Assembly: GCA_026026165.1 (NCBI GenBank)
Contig: JAPEUD010000001.1
Location: forward strand, 124,001 to 188,000
Reading direction: 5' to 3'
DNA: 64,000 bases
Source of the DNA: Sarea resinae
Lineage: Eukaryota
Both the position numbers and the translations under genes were made by a program. The notes below the pieces were generated by a model that saw only the letters and a list, made by a program, of their open reading frames with translations, had not been told where the DNA came from and did not search any database. Numbering within the stretch: position 1 is the first letter of the stretch; each line of letters starts with the position of its first letter. Of the stretch, positions 34,758 through 52,068 are shown piece by piece.

Positions 34758-36102
34758 GGTTTCCCTTTTTCTTCTCCGTTGAGAGAAATGCAAATTGGCC
34801 AGTGAGGGGCAGATCCTCTGTCGAGCAAGAGGGTTGGCAAAGGAGGGGCAGCACCCTCAGCTTTTGTTTCCGGGGGAGCGCAAGACCCGGCGTTTTGTGG
34901 GTGCGGGCCGCGGCCAGGCCCTCGGACAGCCCTCGGACCCTGGTTTCGCTTGTCTGTTGGGCGCGGTAGCACAGGGGCTGGCCTGCTCTGCCGGAGAAAT
35001 GGACGCCAGTGACTGGCTTCGAATCGGCGTGGAATTTTCTTTGCGCGCAAGTGTGGGGAATCAATCACGCATCTGGTCGATGGTGGGGTTTCGCAATACA
35101 TAATCGGTATTTCTTATCCTTGATTCGATTTGGCCGTGAGGTCGCCTGGGGGGAGATCTCGTCTGCCTGCGTTTGTGCCCGATCTCTCTTCTCCTCCTCA
35201 ACAGGCCACCTAGTTATCGGTCCTTTCCCCGCGCGCTGTGTCACTAGATTATTTCGTACACCAGGTGATTGTGACGCGGAAAAAGAGCAATTGCTGGTCG
35301 CACAGATAGATGCAGCTGTAGAACGTGAAGGACTAGCCTCATCAAAGCTGGGAGACAGACCTCCTTCCTAACGTATCACATATCCTTCACGTAACGCCTT
35401 GGTGTCCCACAAGCTGTAGTATTCCGTGTAGGATGATTCGATCCGCTCTTGCGACTCCAGAGAAACCCATCTGACCTAGAAGTACAGCCCTTTCGGGACT
35501 CGAACGGTCGGGACATAGATGCACGTCATGGCAGCATGATGCAGGTCATTGACTGCCACTGTACTTCAGCTTTCCCTTGTTCATTTGTTCCATCGAAAGT
35601 CTGATTGATTGGCTGTGGGGACTACACGTCCGAGAGCGGAGATGTTCTGGAATCCGGTGGTGAAGCGAATCGTGTGTGCCGAGACCGAGGTTGCAATCGT
35701 GTGGGGACTGGAGGTTCTGTTTACAATTTAGGCAGTGTCATTAATCCAACTTGTTTAATCGCCCTCCAATCTGTCTGAATGAGCTGCCACAGCCTACCTT
35801 ACGAGTGGAAATTGTCCAAATTCAGAGTATAAGCTTGGATACCTCTGATAATTCTTGTAAAATGATTGAAGCCGCAAACACAACGCACTACTCCGGAGTA
35901 TGCTTGAGAACATAATATACAATAATAACAACTCGATGTCCAAAACAATACGCTATCAATTTCTTCCCCAAATGCTCGCATAAAGCGCACACATGATGAA
36001 AAATATCATAACGATACTTTTAAGGATAAAGTAATGCAGAATAAATAGACTGCTACCATGGAGGTGAATAGGATAGCGAAGCCAAATTATCTCTCCGAAA
36101 GA

Positions 36103-38178
36103 CTAGCTTGTATAGCTATCCTTCGTAATGCCTATCTGGAGATTCGTGTGGAGGTACCTCCGAGGCGTGACCTTGGTCAGCCTGGGGTCCACACCCTCCA
36201 ACAAGTCCACGAGGCTGTTTGCCTTCATGGCGAACTTATCCCCTTTGGAAGAAGGGAAAAGAACTTCGGCATGACCGTCCTTGTTCAAGACTCGCACTTG
36301 AACGGACAGCTTTAGTGCAGGATCACCCGGAAGTGCTTCTGCTGCGAGTCTCTCTTCGGGCGGGGTGTCATCACGAAGAAGACACGTCGCCCAGACTTTG
36401 TCGGCCGCAGTGAGACCGAGACGCTTCACGTCTGCGCTGCGGATGCTAACGTCCAGCTTGTTCAGTGAGAACATGAGACGGAATAGCCCGGCCTTACACA
36501 GCTTGAATTCCCCCCCATTAAGGAATTTGTGTTTTGCCGTCTTTCGCTTCGACTCGTGCGACTTCTGCATCGCATTTCGCCTCTTCCCGATGTAGTATGC
36601 ATATACCACGGGATCCTCAGAGGCAGCCAAGAGATTGAATGATCTCTGCGCCGTGGCGTTACCCCCCTGAACGTATTGGATCAGAGGCGGCGCAATATTC
36701 AGGTGCGCGCCTGGGTAAGGTACTGCCGTATTTTCCGGCAGGTGCGGTTGCAGCAGAGACTCCGGGAGAGTCTGAAAAAGCAAACAACCCCACATCTCCA
36801 TCAGATTGAGAAACATCTGATAGCCCTGGATGCCCTTTGTCTTGGCCGGAGTTGCGGCAGGCAAGAATGGTTCGGGGTAGGTATCCTCATCATCCGAGGA
36901 TACCAGAATGGCATCATCTGGGCCGAATCCAGTAGCATTACTGCCACTGGCTGAACCCGGTTCTGCCAGCACCTCGCGAGAGTCCGAAGACTCAGGTTTA
37001 GCACTGATATCGTCCACGGCTCCCCGAAGGGAAACCGGTGGGTTTTCCAAGGGTCCCCAAAGGGGGACCGCTGGATCGTTCAAGGATCCCCGAAGGGAAT
37101 CCTCAAACGCCGAGTCGTCTTTCATGGCATTGCTGCCTTTGGACGAGTCGGTGGCCGCATCACGGGAACCCGAAGATTCCCCTTCAGCAGTAGATTCATT
37201 CAAGGATCCCCGAAGGGAATCCTCAAACGCCGAGTCGTCTTTCATGGCATTGCTGCCTTTGGACGAGTCGGTGGCCGCATCACGGGAACCCGAAGATTCC
37301 CCTTCAGCACGGTCCGTATTTGAGAAGACGAAAGATTCGTCTCCTGTGAGGGTGCAAAGCATTGCGTATGTGCTTTGCTTACCCATTCGCTCATAAGCGA
37401 AGTAGTGGAGGCTACTCTTGTTGCGGCGGAATTCTGCATCCATATGGTTACCCATACGAGCAGCGATGTCCGAAGCCTGGCCAACGTAGAGGTAGTAGGC
37501 TCCGACTTTATCCTTGTTAGGGATAACGTCCATGTACACACCGGGACCAGTGTGCGTGAAGTCACCTCCAAGGGCCTGGAGGTCCTGGAGGTTGAGGTAT
37601 CGTCCGTCCAAGAACAAGTCGTTGACGGAGGGCGAGAGGGCGTTCAGCATACATCCGCGGACGTAGCTGGGGTCATTCTGTCTCAAGAATGATTCGTAGA
37701 CATCTGGGACGGAGCCCAGAAGGGAATCGAGACAGGTTTGGGGATCGACCGATCGAGCGGACGACGTATCGAACACGCCTGCTTGTGCAGGAGTCTCGGG
37801 TTGTTTCGCAGTCTGCTTCTTTGAGTCAGCCTGCTGGATCACCTCTACTTGTTTGCCTTTGGAGACACTCAATGTATTTGGGCTAAGTTCCGGTTTGCCT
37901 GAGGACGGAGCCTCTTCTTCTTCTTCTTCTTCGTCGGCGGCTTCGTCCGAGGACTCTGCCTTTGCTGCCGGTCGCCTGGTCCGCTTGCGCGGTGGCTGTT
38001 CATTGTCTTCGCTGTCCTCGGCGACGGTGGCTGGGCCAGAGGACATTACCGCTTTTGCCGGCTGCTTCCTAGTGGAAGGAGAATTAGCATCTTTTTTAAC
38101 GACCTTCTTTTTGGTCGGCTTGGCTGTGTTCGGGTTCCCCGAAAACATCTCCCAACCGGCACCAAGTCTGCCGCTCAT
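36103..38178 (-). CDS. 691-aa protein with a GIY-YIG-like endonuclease domain
   Basis: Intronless ORF; GVYMD-x11-YLYVGQASDIAARMGNH matches the GIY-YIG two-strand motif plus catalytic Arg; later LNLMEMW (Glu) and HLNIA (Asn); basic NLS-like PPRKRTRR at the N-terminus. Confidence 0.7.
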   Translation of the reverse strand: MSGRLGAGWEMFSGNPNTAKPTKKKVVKKDANSPSTRKQPAKAVMSSGPATVAEDSEDNEQPPRKRTRRPAAKAESSDEAADEEEEEEEAPSSGKPELSPNTLSVSKGKQVEVIQQADSKKQTAKQPETPAQAGVFDTSSARSVDPQTCLDSLLGSVPDVYESFLRQNDPSYVRGCMLNALSPSVNDLFLDGRYLNLQDLQALGGDFTHTGPGVYMDVIPNKDKVGAYYLYVGQASDIAARMGNHMDAEFRRNKSSLHYFAYERMGKQSTYAMLCTLTGDESFVFSNTDRAEGESSGSRDAATDSSKGSNAMKDDSAFEDSLRGSLNESTAEGESSGSRDAATDSSKGSNAMKDDSAFEDSLRGSLNDPAVPLWGPLENPPVSLRGAVDDISAKPESSDSREVLAEPGSASGSNATGFGPDDAILVSSDDEDTYPEPFLPAATPAKTKGIQGYQMFLNLMEMWGCLLFQTLPESLLQPHLPENTAVPYPGAHLNIAPPLIQYVQGGNATAQRSFNLLAASEDPVVYAYYIGKRRNAMQKSHESKRKTAKHKFLNGGEFKLCKAGLFRLMFSLNKLDVSIRSADVKRLGLTAADKVWATCLLRDDTPPEERLAAEALPGDPALKLSVQVRVLNKDGHAEVLFPSSKGDKFAMKANSLVDLLEGVDPRLTKVTPRRYLHTNLQIGITKDSYTS
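37079..37309. repeat. Identical 111-bp direct duplication (period 120 bp), in frame inside the GIY-YIG ORF
   Basis: 37079-37189 equals 37199-37309; gives the repeated peptide AEGESSGSRDAATDSSKGSNAMKDDSAFEDSLRGSLN. Confidence 0.97.
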
Positions 38179-39327
38179 CTTGGACGATGAGTTGGGGGGA
38201 TGTGCTTTGTAAAACGAAAAAACAATTCGATCGTCAACTGTTCGAAAAAAAAAGTTGGTGGTGGAGCTGTGATGAAGACAGATGACGAGAAGAAAAAGAA
38301 GAAGAGTCGAAAAGGTGGGCGGGAAATGGCATTATATAGATGTCTCTTCCTCCTCGGCGCCTTCCTGGCATGAGGCCCCTCCCCTGGTTGAAGATGGGAG
38401 ATCTTTCCAAAGGCACCTGCATCCATTGAACGAATCCATGTCCCACCGCGTACACTGTCTCTCCACGCCTGCCCGGAGTCCAATATTCCCCTAACGTAGG
38501 CAATGTTGGCCGGCTCAGATGTGCCTGCATCCCACCGTAAGAGCAACATCGTTCGACTCCAATGACTCGAATTGATGACGTGACAATGAAACAAATGACG
38601 ACAAGGCAAATCAAAGCTTGTAACGAAATGGAGACGCCTTCTCTTGATCCGTTTTTGATGCAACGGAAACTGGAGATAGGTCAAGAGCACCTGGCTTGTA
38701 GGAAGCACCGACTGCACTGGTTGACACTCTGAAATTTTCTCAGCCGGACTGAGCGATTGCGGCTACCTTATAGGAGGTAGCAATTCACAAGAAGGAGCAA
38801 TATCGTGTGAGGCACGCTGTTCTATGTTTAGTTGGCAAACAAGCAAAGAACGATAGTCGTTTGGCTCACATGGGAACTGCTTTGCCTCTTATCAGGACCT
38901 TACATATCGTCAACCTGTATTTCGCTCGGGTCAGGAGCAAAGCATGAGTGTCTATTCGTCCAGGCGATCACTCCTTCCTTTATACTAGAAGAATGTGGGC
39001 AATGAATCCACACGAAATGCAGACTCGGCGGTACACGCCCGGACGGGTGTCACGAACTGTTTTAGGATCAATGACTGCAGACTCGACATCTGATAACGGA
39101 TATAAGATCGAGCCAAGCCTGGCACGTGATCGGTGTCCCATCGCTGACTCGTTTTGATCTAGATGTTGAGAACTAGGTTGAATGCCATAGTCTGCCATAC
39201 CTTACATGATTGTCAAGACGCTGCGTAAGGAAAGAAGAACGTAAAGCCAGAGAGAAAGAGAGTCGAGAGTTGCGCCGAAACTAACAATAAGCAGCTGCAC
39301 AATTTTCATGTCGCACCCGGCCTTGAG

Positions 39328-39707
39328 AACAGCTGGTCTTATAAGCGACGTCACGCTCGCAAAGTCGACACTATCGAGTGATAAGAGATCTTCAACTGTG
39401 TCTGCCCTACTCTCCTGAATAGCATTTTGCAGCCCCTCTAATATCACACCACTAGCTGTTGTGTTTCAGTGCTGCCAACCGTCCAAACGGTCCAGTCCAA
39501 GGGTCTGGACTGGACCGACTCGCGTAGGTAAGCAGGGCGGTGTGAGGTACGTACCACCTACTTAGGTACTCCGTGGTTTGTTGCGCCAGAAAGTAAGGTA
39601 GTATCCATGGATGCTAGAATCAGAACCCCCACCCTCCTCCCCTTTTTACCCCTTTTTCGCTAAGATCCCGTCGGTCCGTACAATTATCCAGTCCACCCAC
39701 AACCTCT
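39328..39707. repeat. Inverted copy of ~49950-50372 (truncated MITE plus its flank)
   Basis: Reverse-complement alignment is evident by eye; both copies give the peptide ILEGLQxAIQESRADTVxDLLxLDSVDFASVTSL on opposite strands. Confidence 0.9.
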
Positions 39708-39849
39708 GTAGAGATTGCTTCGTTCTGTTACAGCTGTGGCTGGAGCTGGCATGTCTGCTTCTGTCCCGGCGTTGTTGGGCGTCTGGTTGTCTTTGGATTC
39801 CAGCTTCGGCGTTGGAAGTTCATTAAATTGAATCTTTCTCGAGCCCGCC

Positions 39850-40085
39850 TTGAGACTCGAAGAATGTCCGTTTGCCCTTTGTGTTTGGCCTCTGCCGCTT
39901 TCTGTCTCTGCAGATCGTCGCTCATTTTCGTCTTCGTGTCCACTGGCCTGGAAATGGAATGAATTGTGGAAGCATTTTGCGCCTTGGCTAGGTTCTTTAG
40001 TCGCACATTCCGCGTGCTGGAGGTGCTGCGTGAATGGTTTTGCGACGCTGAGAAACTCATCCTCGACCGTCACCAGCTGGAGTCC
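39850..40085 (-). pseudogene. Frameshifted fragment of a conserved fungal hypothetical protein
   Basis: VEDEFLSVAKPFTQHLQHAE / VRLKNLAKAQNASTIHSISRPVD across two frames; resembles a conserved Pezizomycotina protein (from memory). No start codon or flanking exons. Confidence 0.55.
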
Positions 40086-40134
40086 CGTTGACGAAAATCT
40101 GAACCCAAAAAGGAAGCGCCCCCTAAGGGAATCA

Positions 40135-42830
40135 TTTCGTTCGGCTGCATATTGTAGCCATCACCAGAAGGGAAGGGGGGATGTGTGCGGCGTGAGGAAG
40201 AGAGGGGGGCTTCCGTTGCCAGCTGCCCTCCTGGCAACGTCCTCCGTGCCACTTGTGACAATTTTCACACTTAACACGATGCCAGAATCCCCCAAAAGTT
40301 CTTCATCTCGTCGTCGTCATCGTCACAGACGTTGCAGTCCTAGCCAAGGTCTCGTGGAGAGACAGTTGGAGATGGGAGAGGCAGCTTGTGAACTCGTCGA
40401 TTGCCAGCACTTCCCCCGCATGCCATTCCTTGCAAATCTCGCACTTCACACGCTTCTGTAGTAAGTGTTAGCAAGCGTCCATCTAGAGCTAAAGCCAAAG
40501 TTCTGTCCCAGGGTCATTGAGACAAGGATGATGCCCAAGGCTTGCAATCAGGAAAGCTGACAGCGAGGAATTCAGGCTAGTGTGCATTCTATTACTTACA
40601 TTTGTGAAATTGTACGTTTTTGTCGTGACTGACGTTGCGGTTGCCAGTAATGAAGGGCGCAGGTGAGGGTTATGAGATAACGCTTGGTTTGCCGGCGGCC
40701 CCGGCAACTTCCCGCATGCCACTTGTGACAGTTTTCACACTTAACCCGATGCCGGAATCCACCAAAAGTTTTTCCATCTCGTCGTGGCGGTGGTGAGTAC
40801 AGAACAGGAGTCTTTATCTAACCTTCCATGGTACCGTCTTTTGCCGGAGATCCCCTCGGAGTCTTCTCAGGCTTCTCTCTAATACTGCACCCAGTGTCTT
40901 TCTCGCCGGACTCACTGGAGTCCCTTTGTTGTCGGACTCTCCCGAGTTGGTTTTGTTTTCAGCCGATGCCGGTTCTTTGCCTGCTGCCCTCTTATTGGTT
41001 TTCTTCCCAACCTCGACTGGCTGCGCCTCGTCATTGCTAGTACCTTCCCCGTCCGCCTCCTCTTCCCTCTCGGGCTCTCTCTTTTCCTTTCCCCTTCTTC
41101 TTGTTCTTTTAGAGCCAGCCATCAGGAAACATGATGACAAGGAATTCAGACTAGAGTGAATTCTACTATTCACATCCCCAAAGACGTAGGTTGTAGCCGA
41201 TGTGGCTCTTGCGAGCAAGGACGGAGGGATTTGGCCGGCTGCCGTTGCCGGTTGTAGTCTCCTGCACTCGCCTTTCCCGTGCCATTTGTGACACCTCCCA
41301 CATTTGCTACGTTCCTGTATTAAGTGTTAGCAAGCGTTCATCTAAAGCTAAAGCGAAAGGACCGTCAGACGGTCATTAAGAAATATCGTTCGATGCCCGG
41401 GGCTTGCAATAAGGAAAGCTGACAACGAACGATTCAGGCTAAATGCTATTACTCACAATTTCTAAATGATATGTGCTGGTAGTGGTCATGGTCGCAACGG
41501 ACGTTGCGGCCGCCATGAGGGAGGTGGAGAAGTGTGGGTGGTTGGAGAGCGCTCGGTTTGCGGGCGCCGGGGAGGGGGAGGAAGACGCCGGCAACATCCT
41601 CCATGCCACTTGTGGCAGTTTTCAGATGCCGGAATCCCCCAAAAGTTCTTCATCTCTACACTGCCACCATCGCGGAGGACTCTTTCCCCATGGCCTTGAG
41701 CTCTTGATCACGAGCATCGTCGCTGGAATCCCAATGACTATAGCCGCTATGGCCTCGATCATGGCTGCCATGCCCTTCAGCTTTTGATCACGAGCATCGT
41801 TGCTGGAATCCCCCAACAGTTTCTAGTCTCTATACGGCCACCACCGCCAAGGACTTTTGCCGCGCTGCTGGAATCCCTGTCGCTAATCCGAACCCGAAAA
41901 GGTAGTAAACAGAAAGCACTGTGATAGAGGTCAGTGCAATTATCGACTGAGCCGGCAGTCCATGGAGCCAGCAATCTTGAGAGCCGATAACAAGGGATCC
42001 CAAGCTAGAGTGAAATCTACTACTCACATTCTTGAAGACATGGGGCTAGTGGTAGTTTTAGTTGTGACCGAAGTTGGCCTGGCCGCGAAGTGGTGCTGGA
42101 GAGCGAGGTGAGCTCTGGGGGGAGGTGTGTCCGGTGGTGGGGAAGAGCAAGCATGGCTTGTGCTGTGTGTGGGAGTGCGGCGAAGAGACATGGGAGGGTG
42201 TTGCGTTGAAGAGAGTGAGAAAGGGCTGAGGTGGTCGTGCCTCACGACTTCGAAGACGTCGCGCGGAGAGATAGGTTCGCGGCAGTTGAAGCAGCGAGGG
42301 GCGGCGTCTGGATGTTTTTTCTGCTGATGTTCGATATACTCCAACAGACATTTCTTGCAAGCGCTATGCCAACATCCTGTGACGGTCTGCTCGATCATGG
42401 GCTCTTCGGCACATATGGAGATCGTTGGAGCCGGGTTATAGTAGTCTTTTTGGATGGCTCACGTAGGAACAGGTTTGCCTATTTACTGGTCCTTACATCT
42501 ATTGCTAGCCTAAAATTCTTGGTCAGTCTTCAATCTATGATAATTGCAGAACGGTATGCCAGACAAAACACAATGAATTACACGAACGAGTTTTCAGGCT
42601 GGAGTGGATTCTATTACTCACAATTTGAAAGGAGTATGTGCTGGTGATAGTCGTGAGTGAGGTGCGGGCACTGTGAGTGGTGGTGGTGGTGGTGGTGAAT
42701 GGAGAGATCAGAGTGGTGGTGAAGGAAGTGGAGGTGGGAGAGAATGGGACACGGCTTGCGTTCCCGGTCCCCCACGGCATCTGCCCTCATCGTTCCATTT
42801 GCGGCAGCCCTTCTATCTGGACGGAGTCAA
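40135..42830 (-). pseudogene. Array of about 7 degenerate copies of the zinc-knuckle exon and its introns (paralogues of the gene at 45016-46390)
   Basis: Minus-strand KCENCHKWHGGRC (~40270), KCEICKEWHAG (~40445), KCENCHKWHAGSC (~40740), KCGRCHKWHGKGEC (41314-41174), ENCHKWHGGC (~41620), GCRKWNDEGRC (~42810). Most are followed by SLLA-ATS-T-rich tails, and several by a GTRAGT-AATAGAAT donor. Confidence 0.8.
42234..42416 (-). pseudogene. RAD5: Captured RAD5 RING-finger fragment
   Basis: ICAEEPMIEQTVTGCWHSACKKCLLEYIEHQ..PRCFNCREPISPRDVFEVVRHD matches the recalled filamentous-fungal Rad5 C3HC4 RING. The first Cys and both helicase halves are absent. Confidence 0.75.
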
Positions 42831-43538
42831 CAGACGACATTTTCATGCTTGGGGAAGCTGAACCTTCCGAATCGAGAAAATCTCACCTGACCGAGACCTG
42901 TTACGGGACTCTGGCGGGATAAATCCGTGATGAGAAAAGAATTTTGCACCTTCGCGGATGATGTGATTGTCAAAATCCCGCTGGGCTAAACCTCGGAATT
43001 TGAGAAGTAAGTTGGACTTGTTACCATATATGATAAACAAGAGGTTGCGTGAGGAAAAGAAGAAGCAAGAAAAAGGTTCGTTCTAGTAGATATTTATATC
43101 CACATGACCTCGCTAGAAGATCACGCACCAGGAAGTCATAGAACCTATGAGTAGCACATGCTTCAATGCAAAGCGAATCTGTTGCCGTAGCAAGAAGGTA
43201 TCAAGTGCTTACCACGGGGAAACAGCGAAGTCGCTCAACACCGAGGGAGGGCTATTGCCACAACCGTATAGTCTATATGCCTATCGATGACTGCATTTCC
43301 ACCTATTGAGCCGTGAAAAAAGTAGACCTAACTTTGCAATGGTAAATGTCCTGTTGAGGTTAGCAAGTGGCCAATCTCCAGGAGACCCCTCGAGTAGCTC
43401 TGTAAGCTCAATGTAATGTGTATACACATCCTGTAAAAAGATATCAAGAGGGAAGTTCTGGATGTCGCCACAACTGGCCAACAAAATTAAGCAGCAGAAA
43501 AACTAAATGAGGATGGCAAGAGAGATTGGCAAAAGAGA

Positions 43539-43657
43539 TAGTCATGCTGGGGATCGAACCCAGGCCTCTGTGATGCCCAATCACCGCAACCGTTCGGGGA
43601 ACTGTTGGGGGATTCCGGCAATTAAGGCACAGCGCTCTACCACTGAGCTACATGACC
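43539..43657 (-). tRNA. Intron-containing tRNA gene, apparent anticodon TTA (ochre-suppressor-like/undetermined), copy 1
   Basis: GGTCATG-TA-GCTC-AGTGGTA-GAGC-G-CTGTG-CC-TTA-A-[48-nt intron 43621-43574]-T-CACAG-AGGC-CTGGG-TTCGATC-CCCAG-CATGACT-A. All four stems pair, A and B boxes are intact, and a T-run follows. Confidence 0.8.
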
Positions 43658-43748
43658 GAGTTGATATACACATCTCTCGACAGACAGAATTATGAGCATT
43701 CTCCGTGAGGGCTGGGTGCAAAATATCAATGAAAATGGCAAAAAGTAA

Positions 43749-43867
43749 TAGTCATGCTGGGGATCGAACCCAGGCCTCTGTGATGCCCAATCACCGCAAC
43801 CGTTCGGGGAACTGTTGGGGGATTCCGGCAATTAAGGCACAGCGCTCTACCACTGAGCTACACGACC
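43749..43867 (-). tRNA. Intron-containing tRNA gene, apparent anticodon TTA, copy 2 (210-bp tandem duplication)
   Basis: Identical to copy 1, intron included, except A5 to G (gives a G-U pair). The flanks are more diverged than the gene. TTTTT terminator downstream. Confidence 0.8.
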
Positions 43868-44613
43868 GATTTGATATACACACCTCTCGACGAAAAGTAT
43901 CATGACCATTTCGGTGAGGGTTGGAATCCAGTCTCTAAGTTTGTTATCTCGATAAAGCGGCGACATTTGTAAAAGGGAGCAACAGTAGACGGCCTCAGCA
44001 GCTGGCGGAATCTGGATGCCTGGCCTTACTATCTGTCTACAAGGCAAATTCGGCACTTCAAAGATAATTCGATCTTCGATCACCAAGAAGAGAGTATGCT
44101 AGGTATAAGAAGATTCAAAACGCATATAATGATCAGCTCGACCAATTGAGAACGAAGGATTGTAAGCTCCTAGCACCTGGGAGCATGTATAGCAAGGTAA
44201 TCCATATGGTGGCGGCGCTCGAGGAGGGAGGAAAAGAATCGCAGACCTTAGGAGGTAGTTTGTGAGATTACACGCTAAAAAGTGGACGGAAGAACTTCAA
44301 CATCTTGGTGATTTTTAGCTGTTACCCTATGTTGACAATCGGCCATGTTGCTATCCTACTAAGCAGCTAGCATGGGATGGAAATAAGGCAATAGAAAACG
44401 CATATTCATCTAGCGAGACTATGAAGACGGGACCCAGTAATCCATTTTCTCCAATCAAGGCTTCAAGAGATTCAAATCCCCAAATTATTCACATTGCTGA
44501 AGTTGGCGTAGTCACGTGGTCGGACCGGATCGACCCGTTCGACGTAGCATTGGAAATGCGCTCGAGACCGCAATATCGTATTGCTCACTTCACCTCATGA
44601 AAATCGATCTCTC

Positions 44614-44790
44614 ACGCAGACGAATCAGATTGCGCCAGTCGCAGGTCTTTTGTATATGGTCAGAGTAGAGAGGAAGGGAAGGATCGGATGAAGATGTATG
44701 GTTGACCCGTTCAAGTCAGTCGTTTCTAACACCGCCGAACGTTTCCGGGTCAGTACATTGAGCATTGAAAACAGGCGCAATTGTGACGGC
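44614..44790. repeat. Imperfect inverted repeat, partner at ~47215-47398 (plus a partial extra copy at ~47060-47155)
   Basis: gcaggtcttttgtatatggtcagag...tttccgggtcagtacattgagcattgaaaacaggcgc aligns with the reverse complement gcaggccttccgtatatagtcagag...tttcgggtcagtccgttgagcgttgaaagcaagcgc. Confidence 0.75.
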
Positions 44791-45015
44791 CTACATGACA
44801 ACACGGGACGATATCTTCAGATACTGAATAACACGTTTCAATTAACCCGATTGGCTGACTCAGCATTCAAGCTGTCCGAGTGGCCGTTCGGCAAGCGATT
44901 TGATTAGGTAAAGAACGCGTGTCTACAATTTGACTAGTCACTCTGATATAGGGCTGAATATTGAGAGGATAGAAATCAAGAATTCATCATGCCTATGGTA
45001 TCAATAACAGGTTGA

Positions 45016-46390
45016 CTAATCCTCCATCGCGATGTCCTTTGCCGGGGAAACGCCCCTCTCGGCCCCCTTCTCGGAGGCTTTGCCGTCCTCGCCGGCATTG
45101 CCGGTGTTCCCATTCTTCTCTCGGAGTACCACTTCTTTGCCGGTCACCCCCATTTTCTCTACTGCCTTCTGGGCAGACTTCCCTCCTTCATTGGCCGGAG
45201 TCCTTTTCTTATTGGACTTCCCCGCCCCACTGCCTGACGTCCTTTTCTTGCCGGGGACGCCCCTTTCAATAGCTGGAGTCGTTTTCTTGCCGGACCCCAA
45301 CGGAATTGCCACTTTTTCGGCCGATGAGGCCTCCTTACCGGCGTCCCCCTCCTGACCCTCCTTCTCAATCTCTGCCTCGTCGTTGCCGGAACCCCCCTCC
45401 GCGTCATCTTCCCCTTCAGTTTCGCGCTCTTTCTTTCCCCCCCCCCTCTTGCCGGCTCCCCCCTTTTTGCCGGCTCCCCCCTTTTTGCCGGCTCCCCCAC
45501 TTTTCTGGTAAGGGTGGAACCTGTTGCCGGGCTACATTTATCTGTCAGTCTTCATTTCTAAGCAAAGCTGAACGGCCTTCCAAAAAAAGATGGAAAATCA
45601 ATGAAGAACGGCCGAGAAAACAGAGCGACGTGGGAGAGGTCACAATCAATTGAGCCGGTAGTGCATAGAGCCAGCAATAGGGAAAGCTGAACGGCATGCC
45701 AAAAAAAAGATGGAAAATCAATGAAGAACGAGCGAGAAAACAGAGCAACGTGGTAGAGGCAATGATCAACCGAGCCGGCAGTGCCAAGAGCCAGCAATCG
45801 GGAAAGCTGAACGGCGTGCCAAAAAAAAAACAAGATGGAAAATCCATGAAGAACGAGCGAAAAACAGAGCAACGTGGTAGAGGCAATGATCAACTGAGCC
45901 GGCAGTACATAGAGCCAGCAATCGGGAAAGCTGAACGGCATGCCAAACAAGAACGAAAAGCCAATGTAGAACGAGCGAGGAACAGAGAGCAATGTGGTGG
46001 AGGCAATCATCAACCCAGCCGGCAGTCCACGGGGCCAGCAATCAGGAAAGCTGACAACGAGGAATTCAGACTAGTAATTCTATTACTCACATTGGAGAAA
46101 GTGTAGTGTATGGCGGACGTTGCTCTGGCCATGAGAGAGGCAGGGATGCTTCCGGCGTGAGCGGCTCCCGTTGCCGGTGGTCCCCCACACTCGCCCTTGC
46201 CGTGCCAACGGTGGCATCGTCCACATTTGGCACGTCTCTAATAGTAAGTATCAGCAAGCGATCATCTAGAGCTAAAGCCGAAGGAATGGTTCGGGGTCGT
46301 TGAGATGTAAGACAACTTGTAACGGCAACGAGTGATGGCTTTGGAAAGCCAGGCCTTGGGTCATGAATCACTTACCTTTTGTCTTGGCAT
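45016..46390 (-). CDS. Intact 3-exon, 225-aa CCHC zinc-knuckle protein with PY-NLS and a Lys/Gly/Glu-rich tail
   Basis: Exons 46390-46376 (MPRQK), 46237-46091 (RRAKCGRCHRWHGKGEC...HYTFSN) and 45531-45016 (PGNRFHPYQKSGGAGKK...SPAKDIAMED*). All junctions phase 0; donors GTAAGT/GTGAGT; branch sites GCTGAT/ACTGAC; TAG acceptors. A further intron at 46462-46391 ends directly before the ATG. Confidence 0.75.
45565..46052. repeat. About 4 tandem copies of a ~120-bp unit inside intron 2 of the zinc-knuckle gene
   Basis: aagctgaacggc...gagccggcagt...gagccagcaatcggga recurs at ~45565, 45684, 45805 and 45928. Confidence 0.93.
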
Positions 46391-46466
46391 CTAAAGACGA
46401 TGAGCAAGGTCAGTTGACTCTACTGATATAGAGTGCTTTGCGATGGATGGGCAGCCACTTACTCTC

Positions 46467-46635
46467 GATGATGATGATGACGGTGATGATGGTGGTGGTG
46501 ATGATGGTGGTGGTGATGATGGTGGTGGTGATGATGGTGGTGGTGATGATGGTGGTGGTGATGATGGTGGTGGTGATGATGGTGGTGGTGATGATGGTGG
46601 TGGTGATGATGGTGATGGTGATGGTGGTGATGGTG
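46467..46635. repeat. (GGTGGTGGTGATGAT)n minisatellite in the presumed 5' leader of the zinc-knuckle gene
   Basis: Seen directly; 15-bp period. Confidence 0.95.
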
Positions 46636-47800
46636 TGTACGAAAGAGGTTGAAAGGAAAAGAAGGAAAACAAACGGACGACGCAGTATTTAAGGTGGCCT
46701 CACAAGCCTCGGTCCTACCAGTTCAGATGTCTTACGTTCCTCTCCCTCATGGCTGACTTCCTACAGTATATTGGAAGCGCTTGTCCTCCACATCGCCCCG
46801 TACCTGCCTCCTATATTGCGTCCGAACCTGAAATGGGCAGAGGAGCATACATATCTTACCATTCTCGAAGGAGCCACCTAGGGGTCTAGATCGTTACATA
46901 CGAGGAGATCGAGTACCCCCGTCCATCTGCTCATAGACCTACCTGCCTCCTGTTCGTCTTCCTGCCTTGAGCTTCTTCCTTACTTGCCCCTGTTTGTCTT
47001 CCTACTATAAGCTCCTTCTTACATACCGCCTCTCCCTTCTAGACTCGACACCGACGTCGTCATATTGACCGTCAACGCGCCTGCTTGCAATGCTCAACCT
47101 ACTGACCCGAATACGCTCAAGCTGTCAGAAGACACTGACTTCGAGCATGAGTCGTTATAGAGCCTCCTCTTGTATCCTCTCCCCCCCCCCTCCCTCCCCT
47201 CCCTCCCCGTACCATCATATAGACCGTCAATGCGCTTGCTTTCAACGCTCAACGGACTGACCCGAAAGCGCTTGAAGGTGTCAGGATAGCCTGATTTCAA
47301 TGAGTCAATCACACACACACCTCCCCCCTCTGACTATATACGGAAGGCCTGCTTACAGGCGCCTGCGTTTTATACTCCGTTTATTGCCGACAGCGTGTTG
47401 ATTCATCAATACCTACCCTTCGATATTCAGCCCGACGCCTCAAGGAATTCAGTATATCAGGACTACTCTAGTAGAATTCTAGACAGGCGTTCTATTGCTA
47501 CATTGCTTGCTAGATTGTTTCTAGCTAAGTTGGTTGCTAAGTCTGTCGTTCGAGTAAGCGGCGTAGGAGCCTGTTAGGACGCTGTCCAGTATACTACCAT
47601 CGAGCTATGAAAACATGCGCCTACTGCGTACAATTTGATCAGATAACGATTTGCGTACAACTCTTGTCGACAGAATACAAAAATACTGCCTCTGATAATC
47701 AAAATGATTTCTAATCACTAGGTGACTTAATTGGATGGGAAAAGTAAGAGAAAAAAATTAAGCGACAAAAAAATCGAAAAAAAGTTAAAAATAATAATTT

Positions 47801-47881
47801 CGATGTTGACAAGATTCGAACTTGCGTGACCTAAGTCATATGATTTCTAGTCATACGCGATAACCACTCCGCCACAACATC
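47801..47881 (-). tRNA. tRNA-Ser(AGA)
   Basis: GATGTTG-TG-GCG-GAGTGGTTAT-CGC-G-TATGA-CT-AGA-AA-TCATA-TGACTTAGGTCA-C-GCAAG-TTCGAAT-CTTGT-CAACATC-G; long variable arm, G73, downstream T-runs. Confidence 0.9.
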
Positions 47882-48776
47882 TAGTGTTTTCTTGTTGAAG
47901 AATAGTTGTTTGACACAATCTATATACCTAAAGAACATGTCTTTCGATAGATAGCCTCCTGGTGAACTGGTAACGCTGCACAGCTTTGAGCCCTGGGTAA
48001 AAATGTCGCTTAGCGATCTCGCTTTGAGATCCATGTTTACATGTTATCGGCCAGATAAGCTACCGCAGTACTCCGAGTAGAGTACTGCCAAATACCTCAG
48101 CTTGAGCTTACAATTTGTCGGGATAAGCCAATCCAGCATGATCATGTGACTATGCCGAGTTCGGCAGTCGGTGTAAACGGAGAATTCAACCTCTCAATGG
48201 CTACATTGGGGGGGGGGAAGATAAATATCTCCTATTATTTAGGCCGTTCTCGATGGATTAAGGCTTCAACTGTTCTGTCTCTATGTAGGTAGCTTTACAA
48301 ACACACTCCCTTTCAGCCGTCTAGTAGGGTATCTAGAATCAATAGCGATATAGCCTGTAGCCGAATATCCCAACACAATTCACCCTTATAATTACCAAGT
48401 GCCCCGCATTTCAAATTTTCCGCAATTTACTTCGCCTCCTGACAGCGCCATAGAATCACATTCACCAGCGTGTATGCCTAACACAAGCAATTGATAGAAT
48501 TGGTTTCGTCTACTACATGGCTGCCCGATGGCTTTCTGCATTTTGCAATGATTACGACGTGGCTCTGATATCATGTTCGGCTCTCGGTGCCTTGAGGATC
48601 GAGCAACTAGCTATTGAGCAATCTCGTTCTGTCGGTTCCGAGGTCCTTCAAGTCTTGGAGGCTTGCTGACCTCAGGGTCTCGTCAACCCGCATTCGCTCT
48701 CATTAGCCCCGTTCTAGCGCGCATAATCCTGCTCTTCAACTGTCCACACTATCCGACGCAGAAAATTCCAAAAATT

Positions 48777-48857
48777 CGACAACTGAAGGACTCGAACCTT
48801 CGACCCAAAAGGGATATGATTTCTAGTCATACGCAATGACCACTCTGCCAAATTGTC
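48777..48857 (-). tRNA. tRNA-Ser(AGA), divergent second copy
   Basis: GACAATT-TG-GCA-GAGTGGTCAT-TGC-G-TATGA-CT-AGA-AA-TCATA-TCCCTTTTGGGT-C-GAAGG-TTCGAGT-CCTTC-AGTTGTC-G. Confidence 0.88.
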
Positions 48858-49269
48858 AAATCAATGGTTGATTGATGAGTTAGAGCCTGATAGATATCAT
48901 ATATATCCCCACGCGGCAGGGGAAAGTCCCCTGAAGATTAGAGCACGATTTGCGAATTATTCATGCTTCGCAGGGCTCTGAAACTCTAGATCTGGACGGT
49001 TGAGAGCACCGAAGGAGGAGACATCTTCTTATCGGCATGACTGTCAACACTATTGAGGAAATCACCGCGTTCTCCTCTATCTCTTACAGTTGCTTTCACC
49101 TTCAGCGCGCCCGGGGTAAGTTGAACGTGTTTACCTTGCATTCAATGACCACTTCAATTCAAATTGACGTTCACTGACCCCTTGGATTCAGTCCATTTGA
49201 TACTTAAGCGTGAATTGATGAAGCCGATTCACATTCACCTTGGGCGTGTGCTCTTTGTAGCGGGATCCA

Positions 49270-49499
49270 GCAGGTATAGATATCTGCCAGATATCAATAG
49301 CTTCTTCCACGCCCTCAATCTCGACCTCCTGCTCGTGTCCCCTTATCTCGCTTCAAGACTGTCGAGTGAACATCTTTATGTTAAGCTCTTGCTGTTGATA
49401 TACCCTCGGAGGCTAGAAGGTATTGACTACGACCTAGACAAGATCTGTCTTAGGACAGATTTACAGACTAGAATTCTCCAAGGTAAATGGATGACCTGA
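49270..49499 (+). pseudogene. Possible decayed fragment of a fungal F-box-like hypothetical protein
   Basis: FFHALNLDLLLVSPYLASRLSSEHLY...LQTRILQGKWMT resembles a recalled fungal family (IFxxxLNxxLPxASPxLxxxLSSEHxY...LQxxILxCRW); stops follow and there is no ATG. Confidence 0.35.
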
Positions 49500-49903
49500 G
49501 GCTATCTCCTAACGCGGCGTTGCCGACCGGTGGGCGTAAGCTAGAACACTTATGAGCTACCTAATCAGAACACAGTACCTGAGCGAGCTTAGCCAGGCTG
49601 CCGAAGCTGTACAAGGAAAGAATAGACAGAGTTCAAGGAAGAAAAACGCTAGGATGTTATTATAAACTAGGATGTTCCAATAATCCACGATATCATTCTT
49701 ATCAAGGATATTATTATAGTCCTAGAGAGGAGTTGCCTTCCTAGCCTTTATGCTATGCTCCTGTTAACAATGAGGAGCATTACATTGAATGCTGTGTTCT
49801 AGAGAAACTACTTCACAGTCCTTAGACAGACAAGAAAGTGTCAGCTTGTTGTCCGACAGAAAGTCGCATCGCTTTTCTGATGAGGTACTTATGCAAGGAG
49901 GAG

Positions 49904-50209
49904 CAGTGCTGCTAACGGTCCATCGGTCTATCAGTCCATCGGTCCAGTCCAGAGGTTGTGTGTGGGTGGACCGGATAACTGCATGGACCAACGGGATTTT
50001 AGCGAAAAAGGGGTAAAAAGGGGAGGAGGGGCGAGGGCGGGGTGTAATCTACTCCGGAGTAACAACCCTGATTCTAGCATACGCTGTACTTCCTGGCGCA
50101 ACAAACTACGAGCACCTACCTTAGTAGGTGGTACGTACTGGACACGTACCTCACACCGCCCTGCTTTTCTACGCGAGTCGGTCTAAACGGTCCAAGGTTG
50201 CCAGCACTG
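49904..50209. mobile_element. ~306-bp non-autonomous TIR element (hAT-like MITE)
   Basis: Termini CAGTGCTGCTAACG ... GGTTGCCAGCACTG (reverse complement CAGTGCTGGCAACC); many subterminal GGTCC/GGACC repeats; second truncated copy starts at 39467 (CAGTGCTGCCAACC). No clean target-site duplication. Confidence 0.65.
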
Positions 50210-50365
50210 ACTGGAGAAGCCACAGTATATCTTAAAAACACAACAGCTAATGACGTTATATTAGAGGGGCTGCAAGATGCTATTCAGGAGAGTAGGGCAG
50301 ACACAGTTAAAGATCTCTTATTACTCGATAGTGTCGACTTTGCGAGCGTGACGTCGCTTGTCGAT

Positions 50366-50940
50366 CAGCTTTTCTTATAGATTAAAGACTGATAGATATA
50401 TGTAGTCCAGCAATAAGTTCCACCTATACACGAAGACGGGAGAATCCAGCAGGAAGAAAAAGGGGAAGAAGGGGGATGCCAGCAAAGGCAATGGGAAGGA
50501 CAAAGAAAAGACCGATGAAGAGAAGGATGAGGGAGAGTCGAGCGAGGTGGACGTAGAAGGGGGGGAAGATCTAGCAAGGAAGTAGACGTCAAAAAACCCT
50601 CCAGCAAAGATGAGGCAGATAGGGGTGCAGCCACAATGAGGCAGCAATTCCGGAGACCCAACTAGGGTCGCTGAACAAGAAGCAGGCCCAAAGGGAGGGG
50701 CATCCAGCCAAAAGGACCAGATTATCGGCGGAGGGGCTCCTGAAACGAAGAACATGAAGGGGGTTTCCAGCAAAGAAGAGCTGAAGAAAAAAGAAAGACC
50801 CAGCAAGAAAGGAACAGATGGAGTTTGAGGGGAATCCAGCAAGAAACCGGACGAAGAAGAAAAGGCTGCGGCCAAATTCGAAGCAGTGAGGTTGGAAAGG
50901 GGGGTATCTCCAGCAAAAGATGTTGCGATGGAGGGTTGAT
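50366..50940 (+). pseudogene. Inverted, decayed copy of the intron-2 3' end and exon 3 of the zinc-knuckle gene
   Basis: aagactgatagatatatgtag|TCC AGC AAT AAG TTC CAC CTA TAC versus intact aagactgacagataaatgtag|CCC GGC AAC AGG TTC CAC CCT TAC; ends ERGVSPAKDVAMEG* versus ERGVSPAKDIAMED*; internal stops and frameshifts. Confidence 0.8.
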
Positions 50941-51149
50941 CACATAATATCCATCGTTAATTAATATATGTTGTCCCCCAGAGGGCGCTCCCCTTTTTGG
51001 TTCGAGATTTTGACAAATGCCTTCCTCGACAACATTTTGACAATCTCATCGTCAATGCCCTCTTACCTTGGTCACTAAGATGTTTGAGCCTTCAAGTACT
51101 CCGACTCAATCTCAAGAGTATACTGAAACAATTTCACAAACATGCTAAG

Positions 51150-51208
51150 AGACTCCGTCACGGATGAATATGATTTCTAGTCCTATGCAATAACCACTTA
51201 CAATTGTC
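51150..51208 (-). pseudogene. tRNA-Ser(AGA) relic
   Basis: GACAATTG..AGTGGTTATTGCATAGGACTAGAAATCATAT keeps the 5' half and anticodon arm of the 48777-48857 type; T-arm and 3' acceptor strand are lost. Confidence 0.65.
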
Positions 51209-52068
51209 AATTAGTCGAAAGTAGCGAAATGATGTCTGGGACAGACTTGATTAATTTGCTCTACGATATCTGTGCTTTCTCGTGCTAGTCAACTAATCGT
51301 CTTATCTGCCATCATACGCTACCCTAATCGAATCAAATTCTTGACAGCTGGGACAAGATATAGCACGGGCACTACTAGAATGCAGACGTGTGTAGGAAGG
51401 ACATGCATGGCTCAAGAGTAGTCTCTGGAATTTTCTTTGCGACGAGATTAGCATTGAAATGCAGGACTTTGTACTCTAGCTTGAAGATCTATGGATGACG
51501 AGGATACCTACCTTTAACGATGACGATTGACGAGGCCGGCGTCGTCCGAATCGCAAAGCTTGGCTTTCCTTCCAAGACCTTGGCGAGACGTTCGACGATA
51601 AATGGGCCTTAGCACTTACAATCATGCATCATGTTCCACGTGCTGGTATTTGGCTCACTGCCTTACGAGTCTCTTATAATAACGACACCTTGGCTGCTAA
51701 GAGACGATGATCCTGTTACATTGTATTTCGAAACCTGCGTGTTGGTGGTCGGTTGGGGGCCGCAACACCAGAAAGTCAAAGCATCGATAGCGCGGGGACT
51801 TTCTGCTAGGCTGCAGGTCCACCACGAGTCAGCCGGGCTGAAAGGACCCCGCTACCCAATGGCAGCATGAACGGCATCTGACACCGACGCAGATCATCAT
51901 CTCTGTGGCCAGCTATACGAGAATTTTAATCTGGTGGAGACGAAGACGATAGCAGCGCCTCGTTTGTCCAGCTAGCAGGCCGTGTTATATCCTACTCGTA
52001 GCTGTTATATTTACGCGTGCTGTTCCCGTGGTGGTTGGCGCCATGATGAGTGTATTCCTGTCGTCTTC

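Follow-up and report, generated by a model that had tools for sequence, protein, structure and literature searches.

Genes for tRNAs are hotspots for insertion and rearrangement in fungi, as exemplified by the Ty elements near yeast tRNA genes and by the wtf genes of fission yeast, which lie near genes transcribed by RNA polymerase III (Pol III) and near long terminal repeats (LTRs); a driver of the wtf type makes two overlapping transcripts from a single gene for a multi-pass membrane protein. Nucleases of the GIY-YIG superfamily are found beside tRNA genes in the case of SegB of bacteriophage T4, the product of a free-standing homing endonuclease gene, and together with a reverse transcriptase (RT) in Penelope-like retroelements; we know of no class of eukaryotic mobile element that is based on a GIY-YIG nuclease and has no RT. 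Yeast further provides, in SUP4-o, an ochre suppressor tRNA. Here we describe a 15-kb interval (positions 35800 to 51300) of a 64,000-nt stretch of the Sarea resinae genome (assembly GCA_026026165.1, contig JAPEUD010000001.1, positions 124,001 to 188,000), hereafter the window, the sequence of which is fungal. The interval combines a gene for a GIY-YIG protein of 691 aa, a family of small genes with a CX2CX3HX4C motif, and several tRNA and tRNA-like genes. A first-pass annotation, made from the nucleotide sequence alone, had read these parts as a candidate selfish or conflict locus in which the nuclease, a zinc-knuckle protein and Pol III RNAs form one module. We consider it rather probable that the interval is not one element but a gene-poor neighborhood of Pol III genes, which has accumulated duplications, some tandem and some inverted, along with fragments of repeats and a scrap of a gene.

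Content and age of the interval

The interval is flanked on one side by an amino-acid permease gene, represented by three minus-strand open reading frames (ORFs; PF00324, E 1.7e-42, 5.1e-18 and 1e-05), and on the other by a PEBP gene (PF01161, E 3.3e-07), and the G+C fraction is ~0.53-0.56 in the flanks versus 0.45-0.50 over 42-52 kb. Positions 38180 to 51900 contain 101 stop-to-stop ORFs with a length of 60 aa or more; a single one of them matches Pfam at E<=0.01, through a RING domain. Among these 101 ORFs and the 691-aa ORF, Pfam thus recognizes no transposase, RT, integrase, recombinase or Rep protein, nor any hallmark gene of Starship-type elements (tyrosine recombinase, DDE transposase, Rep/helicase, RT/integrase), with the limit that genes made up of short exons could escape such a scan; remnants of retrotransposons or LTRs were not recognized by Pfam in the interval either. 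The best solved relative of the RING ORF is RAD5 (6l8n residues 703-755, E 1.9e-05), and the ORF is a scrap of a Rad5-type SNF2/RING gene. In these respects the first-pass annotation, which had named the permease and PEBP genes as neighbors, had seen no transposase, RT, integrase, recombinase or Rep protein, and had spoken of host-gene scraps, is borne out. The same applies to its inverted duplications, which correspond to the pair of repeat arms listed in Table 1, and to its five tRNA or tRNA-like loci, which comprise four Rfam matches and one tRNA-Ser fragment.

No repeat of the interval has a match in the window outside 39.3-51.2 kb. The two repeat arms are 75% identical over 430 columns, or 86% identical with gaps left out; no homology extends beyond these arms of ~400 nt, and no target duplication is seen by eye outside 39326 and 50375. 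Given that homology is confined to the arms and that no target-site duplication is seen, nothing indicates that the arms delimit a composite element. A high-copy segment of 70 nt (42427-42496) shows, by eye, neither a terminal inverted repeat nor a duplication. A low-depth related contig omits it, joining 42426 to 42497, and loose ends are present on both sides of the segment, which is therefore part of a longer repeat. Where the first-pass annotation had spoken of a miniature inverted-repeat transposable element, we see a piece of a high-copy repeat without visible terminal inverted repeats.

With regard to age, transitions and transversions number 7 and 6 in the tRNA-like pair, 30 and 23 in the repeat arms, and 31 and 27 in the B-type copies of the small gene. 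The duplications of the interval accordingly bear no sign of repeat-induced point mutation, the indices being normal and transitions about as frequent as transversions. Because their identities range from 76 to 93%, these duplications are not recent, with the exception of a 99% identical repeat inside the nuclease ORF.

Further information comes from contigs of three public sequencing runs, one of which (X1) may be the source sample whereas the other two (X2 and X3) derive from other organisms of the same study. Only X1 covers the stretch (share 0.96); X2 and X3 contain only short matches to conserved bits (tRNA-Ser, RING, permease). The X1 contigs were compared at 80% likeness, and their depths do not equal copy numbers. 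In one X1 contig, which has single-copy depth and many differences, 39466 is connected to 49496 on the opposite strand, and the arms therefore belong to a dispersed repeat. Moreover, X1 contigs at ~19-21x, compared with ~340x for the main genome, match pieces of 36.9-48.6 kb at 80-95%. They leave out between 13 and 1470 nt at a time, and they include a junction that links 38714 to 49100 on the opposite strand. We take these contigs to represent a second, related genome in the sample, with a diverged version of the stretch, in which the segment between the repeat arms is perhaps flipped; if so, the stretch is not private to one strain.

The GIY-YIG nuclease and its relatives

The 691-aa protein belongs to the GIY-YIG superfamily by family, fold and residues, and its ORF is uninterrupted, in agreement with the intact minus-strand GIY-YIG-like coding sequence of the first-pass annotation. 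An exhaustive HMMER search against 1.84 billion representatives yielded 246 relatives at E<=1e-3, of which 90 reach 1e-10 and 6 reach 1e-30, with conservation concentrated in two blocks, aa ~140-280 and aa ~450-690. Many of the best matches among those listed are only ~300-340 aa long and have the two blocks side by side, from which it follows that the window protein carries an extra N-terminal tail and an insert of ~165 aa. This disordered insert splits the catalytic domain, which is probably why PF01541 misses the protein: none of the Pfam families, PF01541 included, is detected at E<=0.1. Among 17 relatives, six match PF01541 at E<=0.01 and one reaches the 22.6-bit cut-off, and the ORF of the metagenomic locus L001, described below, scores 25.2 bits. 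A word-index search with the 691-aa protein returned nothing except the protein itself.

An AlphaFold 2 model built from an alignment of 100 sequences has a predicted local distance difference test score (pLDDT) above 90 over aa 140-285 and 450-691 and below 50 in the N-terminal tail and the insert, whereas a single-sequence model (mean pLDDT 34.7) was unusable. In a structure search independent of Foldseek, the best four of 48,161 solved chains were all GIY-YIG nucleases, and the alignments bridge the insert: I-TevI (Z 7.3, root-mean-square deviation 2.1 A, 88 of 92 residues aligned), T4 endonuclease II (EndoII; Z 5.1), UvrC (Z 4.4) and R.Eco29kI (Z 4.2). Foldseek against PDB with the whole model found nothing at E<=0.001, the best matches being ModE/ModG and UvrC at E 0.08-0.2, and the sole match of the profile among PDB sequences was T4 EndoII (E 0.28). 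The residue set of the superfamily is present as GVY215, Y231-V-G-Q, R241, H245, H258, E461 and N494, and it is conserved in the family, when rows with gaps are left out, in 66 of 67 (Y215), 80 of 80 (Y231), 86 of 87 (R241), 84 of 87 (H245), 85 of 89 (H258), 100 of 100 (E461) and 100 of 100 (N494) sequences. We presume for this set of Tyr, Tyr, Arg, His, Glu and Asn the catalytic roles known from the literature on I-TevI and UvrC. Since the fold and all catalytic residues are kept, the protein is most likely a DNA endonuclease, and probably an active one. The C-terminal part (aa ~500-691) is modeled as a helix bundle followed by a small beta-barrel with a weak likeness to TOBE/Mop barrels or to C-terminal barrels of transposases (Z<=3.6, template-modeling score (TM) <=0.37); a search of the ESM Atlas with aa 500-691 likewise gave TOBE/Mop-like barrels, with TM 0.24-0.37, below the bar.

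The disordered insert contains a tandem pair of 120-nt copies that encode a 40-aa repeat (aa 291-327 and 331-367). This pair is far younger than all other duplications of the interval, and the low-depth related contig omits 319 nt at 37076-37309.

The family is widespread in Pezizomycotina and uncharacterized. Its members come from Aspergillus section Nigri, Penicillium, Talaromyces, Penicilliopsis and metagenome-assembled genomes of lichen fungi; they are annotated only as hypothetical or GIY-YIG domain-containing proteins, and a search of the literature on GIY-YIG proteins in fungi turned up only mitochondrial homing endonucleases and unrelated genome papers. Four Aspergillus species share a single cluster at 90% identity, a pattern that looks like vertical descent. 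The window holds no second copy or fragment of the gene: 305 of 306 tblastn matches fall within 36000-38300, and the remaining one involves an unrelated domain of P0005. The latter, a lichen-fungus protein of 1405 aa that also bears GIY-YIG family domains, matches window positions 11870-12232 through its residues 1084-1209 (35% over 127 aa, E 8e-12). The window therefore encodes a relative of another domain of this fusion, 24 kb from the nuclease gene. In another family member, P0026 (703 aa), the GIY-YIG block is fused to an AAA_11 helicase domain (E 8.1e-20), a hint that in some lineages the family acts together with a helicase.

Metagenome contigs were scanned with a pattern derived from an alignment of five sequences, which yielded 13 loci with GIY-YIG relatives. 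At none of the 13 does any frame encode the knuckle motif of the small gene, and none has DNA in common with the island. Three of the loci (L001-L003) encode full-length relatives with 27-33% identity and have no tRNA gene nearby; one of them, L002, lies beside a Ty3-type retroelement, whose RT is separate. The products of the other ten (L004-L013) match the window protein over the catalytic core only (33-37% over 60-84 aa) and differ in the C-terminal region. All ten have, ~0.6 kb downstream and on the same strand, a tRNA-Ile(AAU)-like gene with an intron of 42-65 nt (Rfam 36.5-40.8 bits). These loci are not independent and fall into four groups with wholly different housekeeping neighbors (Table 1). 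The block common to the four groups measures ~3.0-3.2 kb, is 81-91% identical, and contains the GIY-YIG gene, the tRNA-Ile(AAU)-like gene and a conserved 3' terminal stretch. At the 3' end, three groups stop at the same base (..TATCCGCGT; ..ACAAARTATCCGCGT) and then diverge; at the 5' end, groups A and B start at the same base (CGCGTAGTC..) and groups C and D ~220 nt further in, at the start codon. In two contexts, both ends carry CGCGT. Frameshifts affect two of the four gene copies, and the ratio of nonsynonymous to synonymous differences per site (pN/pS) is 0.27-0.60. The block thus has the appearance of an undescribed unit of low copy number, either mobile or duplicative, although the contigs are metagenome assemblies, so that the copies may lie in different genomes, and no empty site was seen among the metagenomic loci. 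Should it prove mobile, the unit would be a mobile element of eukaryotes that is based on a GIY-YIG nuclease and lacks an RT.

The tRNA-like genes of the unit (L005:11546-11684 and the counterparts in L008, L010 and L012) have long introns with an invariant ..ACGCCAGTAAG.., an AG end before AGGTC and, between the two, a word resembling a branch site (TTGAC, CTAAC or GATAAC), that is, spliceosome-like signals within a tRNA-like gene. Two of the four groups have an imperfect anticodon stem.

The small gene, the tRNA-like pair and the competing readings

The small-gene family comprises, at this locus, one intact-looking copy of three exons (B1) and about eight decayed pieces, a count that agrees with the first-pass annotation. 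On the minus strand, KCxxCHxWH motifs are present at 40246, 40716, 41279 and 46202, a variant motif, VKCEICKEWHAG, near 40449, and partial or truncated pieces near 41600 and 41801. In the second B-type copy (B2) and the A-type pieces, the gene is disrupted or has no start. According to our gene model, B1 would have introns of 138 and 559 nt with GT..AG borders, a CTGAC branch site ahead of the last acceptor, and an open frame of 225 aa in which G, K, A and E are abundant. Intron 2 is filled by tandem units, a fifth related copy of which (~120 nt) is found at 41908-42030. The microsatellite upstream of the start codon of B1, (GATGATGGTGGTGGT)n, reads as ~50 consecutive His in one frame of the minus strand, and this frame has no ATG. 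The spacing CX2CX3HX4C, seen in all four full motifs, is one residue short of the classical knuckle CX2CX4HX4C, and the zf-CCHC model of Pfam does not match any of five exon translations even at E<=10; for these reasons the term zinc knuckle is a guess from the motif. Accordingly, of the intact CCHC-knuckle coding sequence proposed earlier, the readable three-exon copy and its motif remain, but neither the spacing nor a Pfam match supports the assignment to zf-CCHC. Word-index searches of a collection of 5.8 billion clusters (with four candidates per search, for the longer and for near lengths) found no relatives and returned not even a protein of the window genome; these searches require shared words of five residues, so that distant relatives could escape. 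Within the reach of word-based searches, the small gene is thus apparently an unannotated orphan.

Rfam detects four tRNA matches in the interval, all on the minus strand and above the gathering score of 29 bits (RF00005). Two are tRNA-Ser(AGA) genes with the loop CU-AGA-AA; they are only 79% identical over 62 nt, an unusual degree of divergence between genes for the same isoacceptor within a genome, and both score as good tRNAs. The other two form a tandem pair (93% identical over 190 nt including flanks) in which the A and B boxes look intact and a T-run follows each 3' end, as judged by eye. The pair has a perfect anticodon stem of 5 bp with 55 nt between the strands, starting CCUUAAU; if the intron is placed after position 37, the mature loop reads C32 C33 U34 U35 A36 A37 U38. 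Both copies therefore have the anticodon UUA, as the first-pass annotation had proposed with its TTA-tRNA, and would read the stop codon UAA. An alternative reading in the intron mode of ARAGORN (Gly-CCC, intron at position 31) is non-canonical, and the Rfam alignment was preferred. Nearly all elongator tRNAs have U33. The tandem pair has neither this residue nor a sense anticodon, as a functional elongator would, and given C33 and the stop anticodon it is probably not decoding.

The intron of the pair contains TGCCGGAATCCCCCAACAGTTCC, and the same word occurs on the plus strand, antisense to the small gene, at 40280, 40750, 41627 and 41801, with 3, 4, 2 and 2 mismatches, respectively, and a longest exact run of 17 nt. 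When the 55 nt of loop and intron were shuffled with preservation of dinucleotides, none of 1000 shuffles had an exact match longer than 15 nt to the rest of the window on both strands. Because no shuffle reached 16 nt, the 17-nt match is not due to chance. A gapped local alignment against the two small-gene regions gave a weaker result: the observed score was reached in 3 of 200 shuffles. In the small gene, the common word encodes ..TFGGFWH.., just ahead of the A-type knuckle. We read this match as pointing to a chimeric origin of the tRNA-like genes, in which a fragment of the small gene would have been copied into the intron by local repair or recombination.

The scenario that we favor can be put together as follows. 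The nuclease gene, a member of an uncharacterized Pezizomycotina family, would be an ordinary gene beside the Pol III neighborhood. A lineage-restricted small gene would have been copied several times, in tandem and nearby, with one copy still readable and the rest decaying. The tRNA-like pair would be a chimera, with a sound tRNA body and an anticodon loop and intron taken from an antisense stretch of the small gene, and this imported stretch would be the source of C33 and of the stop anticodon. Finally, the two inverted copies of a dispersed repeat around the cluster may allow it to flip. We observe directly the parts themselves, how they are related, how old they are and that enzymes of mobile elements are missing; that recombination and repair around Pol III genes assembled them into a patchwork is what we infer. 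Several observations weigh against this scenario: the 17-nt match ties two of the components together; pN/pS between paired exons of the small gene (0.39 over 46 codons and 0.48 over 43 codons) suggests past coding constraint, albeit with little power; and the link between nuclease and Pol III genes recurs within the family, as a discrete unit in four contexts.

The last of these points invites an alternative in which the GIY-YIG and Pol III genes of the window are the remains of an undescribed nuclease-driven mobile unit, copied after the target is cut, the window holding an old, rearranged copy. It draws on the ~3.0-3.2-kb block that unites a GIY-YIG relative with a tRNA-Ile(AAU)-like gene at all ten loci and in four contexts with different housekeeping neighbors, on the common end base of three contexts and the sharp 5' end of two (the other two being ~220 nt shorter), and on frameshifts in two of the four copies together with the pN/pS values, as expected of decaying element copies. 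However, the window gene matches that subfamily over the catalytic core only, with a different C-terminal region, and its three closest full-length relatives (L001-L003) lack a nearby tRNA gene. Moreover, no tRNA-like gene was detected at E<=10 within 1.4 kb downstream of the window gene, the distance to the tRNA-like pair being 5.4 kb, matches to the unit termini in the window are at chance level, a second nuclease copy is missing there, and the four contexts come from metagenome assemblies without a visible empty site. We therefore regard this alternative as unlikely for the locus at hand. Decidedly unlikely, in our estimate, is the broader proposal that the family as a whole supplies the nuclease of undescribed low-copy mobile units with their own tRNA-like gene, that the island is an old rearranged instance in which the nuclease gene survives, and that its tRNA-like genes, with their antisense piece, may regulate the small gene.

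The antisense match also admits a functional reading, in which the pair would be kept for its intron: the free 48-nt intron, or the unspliced precursor, would pair with small-gene transcripts and lower them. In line with such regulation, the match (17 nt exact, 22 of 23 overall) is antisense to the coding strand at four pieces of the small gene, the intron core is identical in the tandem copies, whose flanks show 13 differences over 188 aligned positions, and the tRNA bodies score well (55.2 and 52.6 bits) and are followed by T-runs, as seen by eye. A precedent is offered by the free tRNA introns (fitRNAs) of Saccharomyces cerevisiae, which, as reported in a preprint, lower mRNAs with long complementary stretches (bioRxiv 10.1101/2025.11.19.689297). 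Nevertheless, all four target sites fall in decayed A-type pieces at 40.2-41.9 kb and none in the intact-looking B1 at 45.0-46.4 kb, the gapped-alignment test is only moderately significant, and the tRNA-like introns of four related units match their own loci by 9-11 nt at most, so that we give this possibility little credence. Far more doubtful still is the idea of a meiotic driver or toxin-antidote system in which the nuclease would be the poison and the small protein, by binding nucleic acids, the antidote. That an intact nuclease gene neighbors a family of small genes in rapid change is only circumstantially in keeping with it, but 6.8 kb separate the two genes, the duplicated copies are old, the small gene accompanies the nuclease family at none of the 13 loci and has no detected relatives, and no feature of known fungal drivers was found.

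Returning to the Pol III patchwork, the proposal of a single selfish module made of nuclease, knuckle protein and Pol III genes is unsupported here, because the nuclease gene looks like an ordinary member of its family, the small gene is an orphan confined to this locus, the duplications are old and no mobility signal was found. At this locus, the absence of the small gene from related loci, the lack of a tRNA gene adjoining the nuclease, the lack of a second nuclease copy in the window and the resemblance of the low-depth X1 contigs to much of the stretch speak against it; what survives of the proposal is the occurrence of nuclease-tRNA-like units elsewhere and the 17-nt match. The first-pass annotation had itself named, as the outcome that would refute it, components that never co-occur elsewhere; the nuclease does co-occur with a tRNA-like gene, at 10 of 13 loci and in four contexts, but the small gene does so at none. 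Since it is most plausibly a tRNA-linked duplication patch, the locus is not to be counted as a new selfish element. Its by-products deserve attention in their own right, namely a nuclear GIY-YIG family of fungi that has kept its active site and that in one lineage resides, in four genomic contexts, within a ~3.2-kb unit with a tRNA-like gene, and a UUA tRNA-like gene with an intron antisense to a neighboring gene family, which lends itself to testing whether tRNA introns act as regulators.

Table 1. Features of the interval (window coordinates) and of the related metagenomic units (contig coordinates).
Feature	Position	Strand	Description
GIY-YIG ORF	36103..38178	-	intact, single exon, 691 aa, stop TAG
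Tandem repeat inside nuclease ORF	37076..37309	-	two 120-nt copies, 99% identical, within disordered insert
Inverted repeat, left arm	39326..39708		copy of dispersed repeat; high-copy segment near 39481-39520 (very high-copy in X1 contigs)
Inverted repeat, right arm	49950..50375		partner of 39326-39708
Decayed small-gene cluster	40150..42650	-	from motif scan, frames and repeats
A-type exons	~40174-40311 and 40647-40781	-	decayed pieces
B2 copy	exon 41174-41314; tail ORF 40814-41122	-	K/E-rich tail ORF; from frames
Intron-like repeats of small gene	near 41908-42030 and 42593-42650	-	from repeat search
RING scrap	42027..42458	-	stop-to-stop ORF, 144 aa, partial C3HC4 RING; PF00097 22.5 bits
High-copy repeat fragment	42427..42496		70 nt; depth 5050 vs ~340
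tRNA-like copy 1	43539..43657	-	Rfam 55.2 bits; class I cloverleaf; 48-nt intron
tRNA-like copy 2	43749..43867	-	Rfam 52.6 bits; tandem duplicate, identical intron core
B1, best small-gene copy (gene model)	45016..46390	-	exons 46390-46376, 46237-46091, 45531-45016
Intron-2 tandem units	45564..46054		four copies, ~120 nt, 74-95% alike, fill B1 intron 2
15-nt microsatellite (GATGATGGTGGTGGT)n	46469..46650		~12 units, just upstream of B1 start codon
tRNA-Ser(AGA) 1	47801..47881	-	ARAGORN; Rfam 59.6 bits
tRNA-Ser(AGA) 2	48776..48858	-	ARAGORN; Rfam 57.6 bits
tRNA-Ser fragment	51168..51210	-	85-90% to two full copies over 31-46 nt; no Rfam tRNA match
Unit copy	L005:8675-11871		
Unit copy	L008:8687-12627		
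Unit copy	L010:7638-10856		
Unit copy	L012:8911-11968		
Group A neighbors			PROPPIN, RRM, DLIC genes
Group B neighbors			isopropylmalate or isocitrate dehydrogenase, pyruvate kinase
Group C neighbor			oxysterol-binding protein
Group D neighbor			alcohol dehydrogenase

Comparison with known systems

With the described GIY-YIG nucleases (I-TevI, T4 EndoII, the N-terminal domain of UvrC and R.Eco29kI), the window protein shares the fold and the complete residue set; it differs from them as a putatively nuclear fungal protein with a long disordered N-terminus, an insert of ~165 aa in the catalytic domain and a C-terminal beta-barrel domain. The arrangement recalls T4 SegB in that a GIY-YIG gene lies near tRNA genes and, in the ~3.2-kb units, both would move or duplicate together; in contrast to SegB, the setting is a eukaryotic nucleus, and the window gene is well separated from the nearest tRNA-like gene. 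Penelope-like elements offer a parallel in the occurrence of a GIY-YIG protein in a eukaryotic repeat context and in the fixed 3' end of the related units, which are shorter at the 5' end in two contexts. Unlike those elements, neither the ORF, nor the island, nor the related units encode an RT, and no match to a hammerhead ribozyme was found at the related loci.

The tRNA-like pair resembles SUP4-o in having the anticodon UUA in an intron-bearing nuclear tRNA gene, but departs from it through C33 in place of the near-universal U33 and through a loop and intron that look like an imported fragment. The likeness to fitRNAs lies in a tRNA intron with long complementarity to a family of protein-coding genes, the difference being that the putative targets in the window are decayed pieces of neighboring genes. 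The analogy with wtf drivers, which the first-pass annotation had drawn, is favored by none of our tests, and the predicted product of B1, with its abundance of G, K, A and E, is not membrane-protein-like. The closest parallel to the preferred reading is provided by the tRNA hotspots of fungi: although the duplicated gene is here an orphan and Pfam recognizes no retrotransposon or LTR remnants in the interval, the locus shares with these hotspots a cluster of Pol III genes accompanied by repeats, gene fragments and duplicated small genes.

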